Virus record (IMG/VR): IMGVR_UViG_2609460125_000009
Length of the DNA stretch: 64,000 nucleotides
Source: a virus
Taxonomy: Duplodnaviria; Heunggongvirae; Uroviricota; Caudoviricetes
Reading direction: 5' to 3' (one strand)
Shown here: one piece after another, positions 43,598 to 51,963 of the stretch
Layout of the letters: each line of letters begins with the position of its first letter
Position numbering within the stretch: the stretch's first letter is position 1
Program-made: the position numbers and the translations under genes
Notes under the pieces: model-generated
Database searches by the model: none
What the model saw: the letters and a program-made list of their open reading frames with translations, nothing else
What the model was told of the DNA's origin: nothing

Positions 43598-44011
43598 ATG
43601 GCAATAGGTATGTATGTCTTATGCGAAATTGAAGGTGTGCTGGCAAATACCAGCCATCGTAAATCTGTATCTGACGCGGATGCAGGCCAGCTCATTGCCG
43701 GTGATGAACTCATTTTCCCCACCAGCCGTATGTTGCGTGGTTTTGCTCGCTCAGGGGCTGAAGTGGTGCTTATCAGTAGCCGCTCTGAAACTCTTGAAGC
43801 GCCCACTAAACGATGGTTGAAAGATTTTGGTGTTGATTACGACTGGCTTCATCTCGTACCGAATGGCGTCAGTTATGAGAAGCATATTAAGCGCACATTA
43901 GCGGAGCATAAAGGCGATCTGCTTATCGCTGCGCTGGTGCACGATCCTCGACTCCGTGCCGCTTTAGCTGACTCTCATCATAGACCGGTCATCTATGAGG
44001 TGAGCAAATGA
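43598..44011 (+). CDS. hypothetical protein
   Basis: ORF with ATG 2 nt after thyA stop; start uncertain. Confidence 0.4.
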   Translation: MAIGMYVLCEIEGVLANTSHRKSVSDADAGQLIAGDELIFPTSRMLRGFARSGAEVVLISSRSETLEAPTKRWLKDFGVDYDWLHLVPNGVSYEKHIKRTLAEHKGDLLIAALVHDPRLRAALADSHHRPVIYEVSK

Positions 44012-44484
44012 AGATGATAGCTGCTGTTGGCCGTAACTATGAGATCGGCATAGCGAACGAACTGCCCTGGCGTTGTTCTACCGATCTGAAGCTATTTAAG
44101 AGACTCACCAAAAACGCCACTGTCGTTATGGGGCGTAAAACGATGGAAAGTCTCAAACGCCCTCTTCCAGAGCGTCATAACCTCGTTTTGACGCGCTCTC
44201 ATGGCTTTGTACCAAATGGATTCTACCCTGCTGGTGTGGATGATGTGTTGCGATTACCAGAGCCTGTGTGGGTGATTGGCGGGGAACAAATTTACTCGCT
44301 ATTCATGCCGCATGTTGAAGAGATTTGGCTCTCCCACATCGGCGTTGATGTGCCAAACGCCGATGCATTCTTCCCGGCAAGCATGATGCGTAATTTAGGC
44401 TTTGTGCCTGTTGAAACAGTTTTTACCCAACGAGCCAGCGAGGAAGAGCTTGGCTTTTCGCAGATCGTATACAGAAGGTCGTAA
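44008..44484 (+). CDS. folA: dihydrofolate reductase
   Basis: MIAAVGRNYEIG ... LPW ... VVMGRKT ... VIGGEQIY motifs. Confidence 0.85.
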   Translation: MKMIAAVGRNYEIGIANELPWRCSTDLKLFKRLTKNATVVMGRKTMESLKRPLPERHNLVLTRSHGFVPNGFYPAGVDDVLRLPEPVWVIGGEQIYSLFMPHVEEIWLSHIGVDVPNADAFFPASMMRNLGFVPVETVFTQRASEEELGFSQIVYRRS

Positions 44485-50300: not shown

Positions 50301-50445
50301 GTAAGTGTTTACCTATCATTTTAAATCATGTATCTTATCGGCGTCAGGATGACAATGTGTCGGTAAGACACAGTTCCAGGATGGAACGAGAAAGGCGGCT
50401 GGCAATCGCCAGCCGCAACTCTTTCTGACACTGGATGGAGTCCAC

Positions 50446-50940
50446 ATGGCACGTCAAACCTATTTCACTTCTGCAACTAAACGTCCTCGTTCACTACGTC
50501 AAATTTTGGCCGAATTATTTAGCGGTCGTGTTCTGTCACGTCTTGATGAACTAGAGACTGCCGTTCGGTTGCTGAATGAACGTTTAGATAAGCAAGCGTC
50601 AGTTGTTGCGAACGTGGGGGCGATTGTTACCTCTGGTTCTTCACGCGAAGCGAAAAGTACACGGCCTTTAGTGAAGGAGAAAAACAACAAGGACAGTTCG
50701 AATGGAAAATTTTCAAAGAAAGAGGCTGAAACCAATGGCCTACGTTCTCATTATAGTTTCACTGGCGACGGTAGCCGTTCCAGCCGGCCAGAGCCTTTTG
50801 ATGCCGGGTTCATCCATCACCACACCTCCGTCGACGACAATTACCACCACTCCAGTAGAGCGTCCTGTCACTCTGGATGGGATGACGGTGGATGCGATAC
50901 CTCAAGTTCATCCAGTTACTCAGGATCATGCTGTGACTAA
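50446..50940 (+). CDS. hypothetical protein; C-terminal part overlaps an alternative frame (50702-50953)
   Basis: First ~85 aa protein-like, remainder low complexity; alternative frame encodes a TM segment plus Pro/Thr-rich linker. Confidence 0.35.
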   Translation: MARQTYFTSATKRPRSLRQILAELFSGRVLSRLDELETAVRLLNERLDKQASVVANVGAIVTSGSSREAKSTRPLVKEKNNKDSSNGKFSKKEAETNGLRSHYSFTGDGSRSSRPEPFDAGFIHHHTSVDDNYHHSSRASCHSGWDDGGCDTSSSSSYSGSCCD

Positions 50941-50949
50941 GGCGGTTGT

Positions 50950-51147
50950 ATGAACTGGTTTTCAAATCACTTTGGAAAAACTTGGCTGGCGATTCTGGCT
51001 TTCATAGCTCTCATGGCCGCCGGTTGGGTATCGAACATTGTAAAACTCGTTTGCTCTGGTGATCTCCAGTTTCAGGCTGGTATGACCTTGGCTCGTGTTG
51101 TTGGGATTTTTGTTTTTCCAGTCGGTTCGGTACTTGGTTATTTCTGA
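50950..51147 (+). CDS. small membrane protein (65 aa)
   Basis: Two hydrophobic segments. Confidence 0.4.
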   Translation: MNWFSNHFGKTWLAILAFIALMAAGWVSNIVKLVCSGDLQFQAGMTLARVVGIFVFPVGSVLGYF

Positions 51148-51240
51148 CGGTTGTTAGTGCATATGCATTGACCGTCTTTTCGTAAGCAATTCATGTAACT
51201 AGAAAACAACTTGTTTTAACAAATAACAAAAGGAAAGCAC

Positions 51241-51666
51241 ATGTTAGGTTTATTCAAAAAGAAAACTCGTAAAGCTGTTATCGAGGTCAAAAAAATGGAG
51301 AACCGAGATGCGGTTGAAGCCACCGTGTGGGGCGCGTACATGATCTCCTATGCCGATGGCACATGCGACGCAAAGGAAATTTCCATTCTTGAGAAAACAA
51401 TTGCAGCTCTGCCTGCGTTTTCTCCGTTTGCTGGTGAGATTGCCCAAATGAGCGCCAATATCCGTGCTCAATACGAAGCCTCACCGCGCCGCGCTAATGC
51501 CCAGGCTTTACGTGAGCTGGCTGATGTGGCCGGGACTAATGATGCAGTAGATGTACTGTGTCTGTGCCTTGATATTGCCGACCAAGACGGTATTGGCGAA
51601 CAAGAAGAGCTGGCCCTGAAAAAGATCGCACAGGCGCTTCAGTTGTCACTGGATGCTTATCTCTAA
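51241..51666 (+). CDS. TerB-like domain protein (tentative)
   Basis: Two ADG..(E) helical repeats (ISYADGTCDAKE, DIADQDGIGEQEE); conserved upstream motif. Confidence 0.45.
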   Translation: MLGLFKKKTRKAVIEVKKMENRDAVEATVWGAYMISYADGTCDAKEISILEKTIAALPAFSPFAGEIAQMSANIRAQYEASPRRANAQALRELADVAGTNDAVDVLCLCLDIADQDGIGEQEELALKKIAQALQLSLDAYL

Positions 51667-51824
51667 TGCTTGAGAGATTCCGGCTTGTGACCGTCATTGC
51701 TCTTCTGGTGATGGCGGTGTTGGTGGATTTTACGGGAAAGATGATGTCTGTCATTTCTGATGGCGTCCTCATTGGTCTGGCGATCTACTTCGCTTATCCG
51801 CTAGTCCGTAAAGCAACGTGTTAA
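51666..51824 (+). CDS. small membrane protein (52 aa)
   Basis: ATG overlaps TerB-like stop; hydrophobic; followed by terminator 51828-51856. Confidence 0.4.
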   Translation: MLERFRLVTVIALLVMAVLVDFTGKMMSVISDGVLIGLAIYFAYPLVRKATC

Positions 51825-51963
51825 TGACAAGGGCCAAATGGCCCTTGTGTTTCGTTGACCGAAATAGAGAGTTTGCACCTTTACGTTTAGCTTGCTCCCC
51901 TTTTATGCCACATCACAATAAAGCCAATAAGAAAACAACTTGTTTAAGCATTAGGAAAAACAC

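Follow-up and report, generated by a model that had tools for sequence, protein, structure and literature searches.

In the lambda Rz/Rz1-type spanins, the gene of a small Pro-rich envelope protein lies in the +1 frame within the 3′ part of a larger gene of the same strand, and both products are real. Gene E of phiX174 lies within gene D, in the +1 frame of the latter, and encodes a protein of about 80–90 amino acids with an N-terminal transmembrane helix. Gene callers discard long same-strand overlaps. In phage P1, tciA and tciB (followed by tciC) are arranged with an overlapping stop and start codon. At the RNA level, CsrA binds to GGA in the loop of a short hairpin.

The Locus and Its Closest Described Relatives

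The window studied here, a stretch of 64,000 nucleotides (IMG/VR record IMGVR_UViG_2609460125_000009), is an SSU5/pHCM2-type phage-plasmid of E. coli. This family of elements was matched in 680 plasmids from Klebsiella, Escherichia, Enterobacter, Salmonella, Citrobacter, and Cronobacter. The element studied, a temperate dsDNA phage-plasmid of 110 kb, has its lysis cassette elsewhere. All the features described below are on the + strand. The locus comprises orfA (50446–50940, 164 amino acids), orfB (50702–50953, 83 amino acids), which overlaps orfA by 239 nt in the +1 frame relative to it, and orfC (50950–51147, 65 amino acids). An earlier sequence-only reading of this DNA had listed the features of the region, all of which were located where it had placed them, and had left three explanations for orfA and orfB: a programmed frameshift, an embedded gene pair or a miscalled start. 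The comparative evidence favored the second, and orfA and orfB are probably a genuine same-strand overlapping pair, conserved across the SSU5/pHCM2 phage-plasmid family.

The arrangement of the pair on one strand is like that of Rz/Rz1, but the likeness does not extend to the proteins or to the location. In contrast to Rz, the orfA product has no N-terminal transmembrane domain, and the orfB product, unlike Rz1, has no lipobox cysteine: the E. coli, Salmonella, Enterobacter, and Cronobacter forms have no cysteine after the hydrophobic segment. Moreover, orfB extends 13 nt beyond the orfA stop, whereas Rz1 is fully embedded, and the pair lies outside the lysis cassette. In the gene map of the related phage Cyrano, the holin, endolysin, Rz, and Rz1 genes are at 26.7–28.2 kb, and the orfA homologue, flanked by rnhA and tciA, is at 79.8 kb. 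A spanin identity was therefore rejected on both anatomy and location. The orfB product resembles phiX174 E in its length, its transmembrane helix near the N-terminus and its +1 frame, but the two share no sequence similarity, nothing points to a lytic function of orfB, and its host element has a separate lysis cassette.

PGAP calls orfA a hypothetical protein, and no orfB is listed in the RefSeq plasmid records that were checked; in the annotated phage records, a single feature, orfA, spans the orfB region. Hence, orfB is missing from all the annotated records examined (RefSeq plasmid and GenBank phage), and a conserved gene for an 83-amino-acid membrane protein has gone unrecorded in them. 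Homology searches with orfA, orfB, and orfC gave matches confined to the same phage-plasmid clade: 28, 16, and 9 clusters, respectively, were found among 5.8 billion proteins, and a further homologue search gave 20 matches among 1.84 billion representatives. Searches of Pfam, NCBIfam, PADLOC, and PDB sequences with the three products returned nothing above threshold, and their PHROGs matches (phrog_10411, phrog_15659, and phrog_6006, respectively) were only to families without assigned function. With PADLOC, no family match was obtained for these three or for the adjoining TerB and DUF3927 products at E-values up to 1. The orfA/orfB locus adjoins the resistance-gene insertion region of pSLy3-type phage-plasmids (PMC9600943), so its products and their regulation may bear on what is lost or changed when resistance is acquired.

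Both Frames Are Open Across the Overlap

In every intact sequence of the nine lineages compared, frames A (orfA) and B (orfB) contained no stop codon within the overlap. The third frame had 3–9 stops in the nine lineages (3–7 in seven of these), and the reverse frames had 0–7 stops in seven lineages. The orfA stop was found 13 nt before the orfB stop in every lineage, and the two remotest ones, in which orfA identity falls to 45% and 31%, had the identical arrangement and the same offset. The persistence of a 239-nt overlap down to 31% protein identity makes this a well-supported case of dual coding, and one that lies outside the lysis cassette of a large temperate dsDNA phage.

The expectation under chance was estimated by synonymous reshuffling. 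When the orfB protein was kept fixed, frame A was open in 0.03–0.14 of the trials per lineage; when the orfA protein was kept fixed, frame B was open in 0.017–0.72 of them (by lineage, 0.72 for E. coli, 0.10 for Klebsiella and 0.017 for L088), and our own multiplication of the latter values over the lineages gave about 3e-5. The double open frame thus exceeds chance. In addition, a 13-nt core, TCTGGATGGGATG (50872–50884), which encodes S-G-W-D in orfA and L-D-G-M in orfB, was identical across seven lineages with differences at about 35–40% of the other positions; within this core, each frame fixes the silent positions of the other. Many database copies of the gene carried frameshifts or insertions, which indicates that it is dispensable for plasmid maintenance.

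Substitution Patterns in the Overlap

Outside the overlap (50446–50701), orfA showed a coding signature, with 657, 489, and 302 differences at the third, first, and second codon positions, respectively. Since the N-terminal part of orfA behaves as normal coding sequence, the miscalled start proposed earlier was discarded. A coding signature by codon position was also found in orfC (539/318/205). Within the overlap, variability followed frame B in a muted form, with 397, 341, and 281 differences at its third, first, and second positions, respectively.

Silent sites are under constraint in both frames. At codons whose amino acid is conserved, the third base was invariant in 11 of 18 cases in frame B and 11 of 16 in frame A, compared with 3 of 32 in the flanks (Fisher tests against the flanks, 1.8e-4 and 4.7e-5 for frames B and A, respectively). 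On short branches, B-silent changes occurred at 0.44 and A-silent changes at 0.41–0.53 of the flank silent rate, a comparison weakened by the unequal silent rates of the flanks themselves (0.6 vs 1.5 relative units). Parsimony also counted four changes that create or remove an orfA stop; as none of the extant sequences carries one, these were taken as artifacts of reconstructing the ancestors site by site.

The orfA tail showed an amino acid identity between lineages of 0.40–0.62, and the non-coding third frame gave 0.32–0.58. Tail identity is thus barely above that of the third frame and, together with the predicted disorder of the tail (see below), this means that selection may target a few motifs, the composition or the openness of the frame. 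These observations speak for an alternative in which only orfB and the 85 N-terminal residues of orfA have a function as peptides, the orfA tail being a tolerated read-through whose frame is kept open for ribosome traffic that leaves the mRNA unfolded, for protection from Rho or for the delivery of ribosomes to the orfC start. It would account for the order of variability in the overlap, which is that of frame B, and for the position of the orfA stop inside the Shine-Dalgarno (SD) region of orfC. Nevertheless, in the two distant lineages in which orfC is absent, frame A continues without a stop to the same point and retains an ending of the C-x-S-G-W-(D/N)...C-D type. Furthermore, orfB codons are under strong constraint at their silent positions, and the His-rich and Ser/Cys-rich composition of the tail persists with its terminal motif at 31–45% identity. 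We consider this alternative unlikely, and the reading of orfA and orfB as two coding genes is retained.

Probable Translation Start of orfB and the Frame Junction

An SD-like AAGGA (50689–50693) is located 8 nt 5′ of the orfB ATG. A purine-rich AGGA, GGAG or AAGG was present 7–10 nt before this ATG in eight of the nine lineages, despite variable surroundings; in the most distant lineage (L091), no obvious SD element preceded orfB. The ATG itself was conserved among the lineages, and both features point to an independent translation start of orfB.

The programmed frameshift that had been suggested for this locus, here taken as a +1 shift at the ribosome, would, like transcriptional slippage, fuse the orfA helix to the orfB membrane segment in one bitopic protein. 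The fused product would indeed resemble a natural bitopic protein, and the databases contain many fusions created by 1-nt deletions: P0012, P0013, P0015, and P0018 are one base short in a run of four T (50796–50799), P0022 is one base short in a run of five A (50680–50684), and further cases are P0053, P0055, P0065, L064, and L085. The site of fusion, however, is not constant between variants, and three of the sequences (P0011, P0025, and P0060) shift into the third frame, as sequencing errors or random mutations would do. No slippery heptamer of the X_XXY_YYZ type was found at the frame junction, near 50700, nor any homopolymer conserved among the lineages; the sequence upstream of the orfB ATG was the most variable part of the locus, with indels of 6 and 12 codons, and past the supposed shift site the zero frame remains open. 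Given the lack of a conserved slippery site, programmed frameshifting finds no support here, and with an ATG and an SD-like element that orfB has of its own, we regard it as very improbable. A single-ORF mosaic formed by the orfA helix, the orfB membrane segment and the orfA tail (P0066/L087) was also considered as an ancestral form and rejected: it was attributed to an indel error, because four other contigs of the lineage have the two-frame arrangement and the rnhA of L087 is also split. A scan of genome contigs with P0066 gave no match.

That orfA alone is a gene and the +1 ORF a by-product of its Ser/Gly/His-rich tail composition, as the annotations by PGAP and phage depositors imply and as the E. 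coli lineage, with frame B open in up to 72% of reshuffles, would allow, is scarcely credible against the low values of the Klebsiella and L088 lineages and their product, orfA third positions that form the least variable class in the overlap, constrained silent sites in frame A, a hydrophobic transmembrane segment kept through conservative substitutions, the orfB start signals and an ATGA junction with orfC.

Predicted Protein Products of the Locus

The orfA product consists of a basic N-terminus, one long helix and a His/Ser/Cys/Asp-rich tail ending in ...C-x-S-G-W-D...C-C-D, in agreement with the earlier description of an ORF at 50446 that is protein-like at first and then of low complexity. 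In the AlphaFold2 model, the helix spans residues 17–67 (block-mean pLDDT of 76–91 over residues 21–60) and is the only confident one; pLDDT was below 50 at residues 67–87 and 89–164, with an overall mean of 54.6, so that the tail is predicted to be disordered. No transmembrane segment was detected in the orfA product: its top 17-residue hydrophobicity was 0.88, and no segment exceeded 1.6.

The orfB product has a positively charged N-terminus, a single hydrophobic segment (residues 9–34; Kyte-Doolittle 17-residue mean of 2.24), a Pro/Thr-rich stretch after this segment, and the conserved motif LDGM-x-x-D-x-I-P. The transmembrane helix and Pro/Thr-rich linker assigned to the +1 frame in the sequence-only reading are thus both present, and orfB is predicted to encode a single-pass membrane protein.

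The 65-amino-acid product of orfC, which had been taken for a membrane protein, showed two hydrophobic segments by hydropathy. The orfC ATG overlaps the orfB stop (ATGA), and an ATGA or GTGA junction is conserved. A holin identity for orfC was rejected: the score with Phage_holin_4_1 was 14.6 bits, below the cut-off of 22.2, and in Cyrano the lysis cassette is elsewhere.

Promoter-Like Element and Structured Leader

A promoter-like element (50308–50336) was found directly 3′ of the rnhA stop, with TTTACC at 50308–50313, a spacer of 17 nt and TATCTT at 50331–50336. The TTTAC and TATCTT sequences were invariant in the nine lineages. The element agrees with the consensus at 8 of 12 positions, which is under the reporting threshold of the scan tool, and its function as a promoter is inferred.

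It is followed by a structured 5′ leader of orfA (50336–50448), with a fold of −53.6 kcal/mol and a z-score of −5.56. The leader contains an invariant CAGGATG site (50345–50351), three hairpins, HP1 (50357–50371), HP2 (50373–50387; stem and loop GUUCC-AGGAU-GGAAC) and HP3 (50395–50416; a 9-bp GC hairpin), an anti-SD tract, CTCTTTC (50419–50425), and the SD region, GGATGGAG (50433–50440). RNAalifold predicted 28 pairs, 9 of them with compensatory changes; 97.4% of the alignment cells were paired, and none of 500 shuffles reached the covariation score. The structure of the leader therefore covaries, and its covariance model found one copy per genome. HP3 is the hairpin that had been noted before; it is real, but belongs as a single stem to a larger conserved structure. 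A local hairpin, CGUCA-GGA-UGACG, and a long-range GUCAG/CUGAC helix both fit the leader and are indistinguishable because the bases involved are invariant.

The AGGAU loop of HP2 retained its GGA while the stem covaried, and a GGA was present in the SD region of most lineages. In these two features and in the upstream CAGGAUG, the leader is similar to those repressed by CsrA, and on motif resemblance only CsrA may be involved. It differs from such leaders and from the CsrB/McaS-type RNAs in having only two or three motifs and in its strong GC hairpin and anti-SD helix, which could act without a protein. No Rfam family matched the leader at threshold, the best score being that of CsrB (RF00018; 16.8 bits vs 71), and a search of the literature for CsrA in combination with SSU5 was negative. 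As a covarying structure, the leader is a concrete candidate for a site through which a host regulator controls a gene of a phage-plasmid.

A Possible Mode of Action

The unit would be expressed from the conserved promoter-like element through the structured leader. The CU-rich tract of the leader would pair with the SD region of orfA, and the two hairpin or loop GGA motifs and the SD-proximal GGA resemble binding sites of the host regulator CsrA; from this combination we propose that the leader and CsrA hold back orfA translation, which would in this way be tied to the physiology of the host. Once initiated at 50446, translation would yield a 164-amino-acid soluble protein formed by a long helix and a disordered His/Ser/Cys-rich tail. 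Ribosomes starting independently at the internal ATG (50702), with AAGGA as SD, would produce in the +1 frame an 83-amino-acid single-pass inner-membrane protein, with its N-terminus inside and its Pro/Thr-rich tail in the periplasm. The stops of the two frames would lie no more than 13 nt apart, where orfC begins, and the overlap of the orfB stop with the orfC start suggests that orfC is probably translated by coupling.

As a guess only, the products may have an accessory, membrane-directed role belonging to the early or lysogenic-conversion region, for example in exclusion or in modifying the envelope. The broadest proposal is that orfA, orfB, and possibly orfC form a membrane system specific to phage-plasmids. 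Its two core proteins, a cytoplasmic helix whose tail is His/Cys-rich and metal-binding-like and a bitopic membrane partner, would be locked to each other through long-lived dual coding, and an undescribed structured leader that reads the CsrA state of the host would set its expression. This proposal is speculative and has a low probability in our judgment. If true, it would represent a new host-sensing conversion or exclusion module and a new cis-regulatory RNA.

The Adjoining TerB/DUF3927 Cassette

Downstream of orfC, a TerB-family gene (51241–51666, 141 amino acids) was identified as a homologue of P1 tciA, with a DNA identity of 76.7%. Its product matched Pfam TerB (PF05099) over residues 33–136 with 29.3 bits (cut-off of 24.4), which bears out the TerB-like assignment made from the letters alone, and phrog_632 at 2.8e-62. 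The next gene (51666–51824), a homologue of P1 tciB, encodes the 52-amino-acid small membrane protein expected there; this product matched Pfam DUF3927 (PF13064) with 47.4 bits (cut-off of 25) and the TciB-like phrog_1470 at 7.8e-21, and P1-type phage records name its counterpart tciB. The ATG of the DUF3927 gene overlaps the tciA stop (TAATG). Gene order and stop/start overlap are therefore as in P1, although a third gene resembling tciC was not found at this locus. What the tciA/tciB cassette does is inferred from homology only, as resistance to tellurite or colicins or as an inhibition of cell division.

A palindromic motif, GAAAACAACTTGTTT, is located upstream of the TerB gene (51202–51216). 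It had nine matches in the window, compared with 0.26 expected, and all nine were at most about 70 nt (mostly 20–35 nt) upstream of a start codon on the + strand; the motif is taken to mark the TerB gene as a separate unit of transcription or regulation. In the SSU5/pHCM2 lineage, a Rha antirepressor gene occupies the place of TerB/DUF3927. With an upstream motif and a terminator of their own, and replaced by Rha in that lineage, these two genes do not belong to a single membrane-associated cluster with orfA, orfB, and orfC, as had been supposed; they are an independent, swappable tciA/tciB cassette already known from P1. The terminator anticipated at the end of the region corresponds to an intrinsic-terminator-like element (51827–51858), formed by a ACAAGGGCC-AAAT-GGCCCTTGT hairpin (51827–51848) followed by GTTTCGTTGA.

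The orfA-orfB-orfC Locus and Its Genomic Context

Every element that the sequence-only reading had listed for this region was found where it had been placed. The product of orfA (50446-50940, 164 aa) contains one long predicted helix (residues 17-67); disorder is predicted for its other ~100 residues, in which His, Ser, Cys and Asp are abundant. In the +1 frame, orfB (50702-50953, 83 aa) encodes a protein that is basic at its N-terminus, with a single hydrophobic segment and a tail rich in Pro and Thr, and orfC (50950-51147, 65 aa) encodes two hydrophobic segments. Protein homology searches found no homologues of the three products outside the SSU5/pHCM2 phage-plasmid clade, and none of the profile libraries searched yielded a function. 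In the window, orfC carries a 3-codon insertion, AFI, at 51018-51026 (ILAFIALMAAG vs IL---ALMAAG), which has no counterpart in other lineages and falls within the first transmembrane segment.

The 1.6-kb region was 100% identical to ~110-kb circular E. coli plasmids, 95-97% identical to the Escherichia phages Cyrano and PhiR41_1 and ~68% identical to the Salmonella phage SSU5; judged by these identities, the window is an SSU5/pHCM2-type phage-plasmid. The locus lies among DNA-metabolism and accessory genes, flanked by exonuclease, Dam methylase and rnhA genes on its 5′ side and by a DUF4942 methylase gene on its 3′ side; holin, endolysin, Rz and Rz1 form a lysis cassette located elsewhere. In a plasmid that matches the 1.6-kb query at 100% identity, PGAP gave the name dfrA51 (trimethoprim-resistant dihydrofolate reductase) to the gene at window ~44008-44484, which is native to the phage-plasmid and belongs to its nucleotide-metabolism block.

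Copies of the locus came from plasmids, phages, IMG/VR contigs and metagenome contigs, 95 sources in all. They comprised 56 different orfA-orfB sequences falling into seven lineages, to which two more distant lineages were added. Among the hosts are Escherichia, Salmonella, Citrobacter, Enterobacter, Klebsiella and Cronobacter. Both orfA and orfB were always retained, while orfC was missing from the two most distant lineages (L088/L089 and L090-L093), and in a subgroup hosted by Klebsiella (L003, L053-L056, L065) it was either replaced or disrupted. One metagenome copy (L087, JGI contig Ga0487874_03078) carries two compensating indels that put the orfB membrane segment into the orfA frame, and its adjacent rnhA is split; since four sister contigs have the normal two-frame arrangement, it is probably an error-rich assembly.

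Both Overlapping Frames Are Under Selection

Across the 239-nt overlap, the frames of orfA (A) and orfB (B) were both open in every intact copy, the orfA stop lying exactly 13 nt 5′ of the orfB stop, and the third frame contained 3-9 stops. When synonymous codons were redrawn, frame A stayed open in only 3-14% of the trials per lineage if the orfB protein was kept constant, and frame B in 1.7-72% if the orfA protein was. Differences upstream of the overlap followed frame A (third > first > second position, 657/489/302) and those in orfC followed its own frame (539/318/205), whereas in the overlap they were ordered as in frame B but flattened (397/341/281). On the short branches of a parsimony tree, relative to the silent rate of the non-overlapped flanks, B-silent changes occurred at 0.44, A-silent changes at 0.41-0.53 and changes altering both proteins at 0.29-0.39, so that no substitution class behaved as neutral. 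The cleanest test was restricted to codons with a conserved amino acid across six lineages: the silent third base was invariant in 11 of 18 frame B codons and 11 of 16 frame A codons, vs 3 of 32 in the flanks (Fisher tests, 1.8e-4 and 4.7e-5, respectively). Moreover, a 13-nt core, TCTGGATGGGATG, encoding SGWD in orfA and LDGM in orfB, was identical across seven lineages. We therefore conclude that orfA and orfB are two overlapping genes with both frames under selection, which supports the embedded gene pair suggested by the sequence-only reading.

The stop codon of orfB and the start codon of orfC overlap (as ATGA, or as GTGA in Klebsiella), and the orfC SD region contains the orfA stop, a layout in which frame A might stay open solely to bring ribosomes to orfC. 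Against this, the two distant lineages without orfC still show the orfA/orfB arrangement and retain the tail motif of orfA. Directly 3′ of orfC (51153-51172), a weak terminator-like hairpin, GTTAGTGCATATGCATTGAC then CGTCTTTTCG, could end the orfA-orfB-orfC transcript ahead of the tciA promoter motif.

Programmed frameshifting, also raised earlier, is unlikely, since orfB has its own conserved ATG, followed by a conserved MENFQRKRL-P motif and preceded in 8 of 9 lineages by a purine-rich SD-like element, no in-frame slippery heptamer or conserved homopolymer was found at the junction, the zero frame stays open past every candidate shift site, and the many orfA-orfB fusion proteins in databases derive from single-base deletions at differing sites. 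Together with variants shifted into the third frame or broken by insertions, these fusions are consistent with sequencing errors, or with ordinary mutation of a gene that is dispensable. Apart from the SD-like element, variability within the locus is highest just 5′ of the orfB ATG, where indels of 6 and 12 codons occur.

Deletions fusing the orfA N-terminus to the orfB frame were observed at a T4 run (50796-50799) and an A5 run (50680-50684); the fusion-type copies comprise proteins P0012, P0013, P0015, P0018, P0022, P0053, P0055 and P0065 and loci L064 and L085. The same T4 run was hit in four E. coli variants, a surprising recurrence for so short a run, and the single-base deletion copies may be sequencing errors or natural mutants. 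Foreign sequence interrupts some copies near orfA codon 109 (window ~50770), and one contig ends within the gene (P0016, P0057, P0010; L096).

Overlapping gene pairs on one strand are familiar from phages, for example Rz/Rz1 and phiX174 genes D and E. The defining features of these two families fail in orfA/orfB, which is not a member of either but a new instance of the general kind, with an added candidate regulatory RNA.

A Structured Leader Precedes orfA

Conservation of the 160 nt 5′ of orfA, which include a promoter-like element (TTTACC-N17-TATCTT), exceeds that of the coding sequence. The leader (50336-50448, ~105 nt), present in one copy per genome, has a far more stable fold than its shuffled controls (z-score -5.56). 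Its consensus fold consists of three adjacent hairpins and a helix pairing a CUCUUUC tract with the SD region. Compensatory changes were found in 9 of 28 pairs, and five of the six pairs of the first hairpin covary; the observed covariation was reached by 0 of 500 shuffles, and shifted-register controls collapsed. The GC hairpin noticed earlier in the 5′ leader is the third stem, which is terminator-like and covaries at its loop-proximal pairs. In the second hairpin, a GGA within the loop persists despite stem changes on both sides; an invariant CAGGAUG is located 5′ of this hairpin, and a further GGA is found at the SD. This arrangement, with GGA in a hairpin loop, upstream and at the SD, is one known from CsrA target sites. 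The leader is thus a candidate CsrA target, a proposal kept hypothetical because the Rfam CsrB model scored far below threshold.

In the proposed model, orfA-orfB, with orfC in most lineages, would form a co-expressed, translationally coupled unit comprising a soluble helical protein whose His/Cys-rich tail is disordered (orfA), a single-pass membrane protein (orfB) and a two-helix membrane protein (orfC), and the structured leader would control it at translation. The gene structure and the selection acting on it are demonstrated by the present analysis, and we infer the topology, coupling and regulation; as a guess, the role of the unit might be accessory and envelope-directed rather than lysis or replication.

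The TerB/DUF3927 Genes Form a Separate Cassette

The TerB-like assignment (51241-51666) passed the Pfam cut-off, as did that of DUF3927 (51666-51824). The two genes correspond to tciA/tciB of phage P1, with 76.7% DNA identity between tciA and the TerB-side gene. Contrary to the earlier proposal, they do not belong to one cluster with orfA-orfC, since they have their own terminator and upstream palindromic motif and are swapped or missing in relatives. In the SSU5/pHCM2 lineage (L002, L009, L010, L012, L013, L014), a Rha-family antirepressor gene occupies the same position 3′ of orfC, and in one Citrobacter plasmid (L011) tciA/tciB are missing. The slot 3′ of orfC thus holds exchangeable accessory genes, and TerB/DUF3927 is a separate, already known cassette of uncertain role.

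The palindromic motif, GAAAACAAnTTGTTT, occurs nine times in the window vs 0.26 expected, each copy preceding a + strand start codon by at most ~70 nt, in most cases by 20-35 nt; copies at 2285, 12962, 28463, 40193, 51202, 51931, 52645 and 55555 are 5′ of eight genes. The motif probably represents a promoter or operator of the phage that defines a regulon. In a pangenome analysis, the resistance-gene insertion locus of pSLy3-type phage-plasmids adjoined DUF3927 and tellurite/colicin-resistance genes (PMC9600943).
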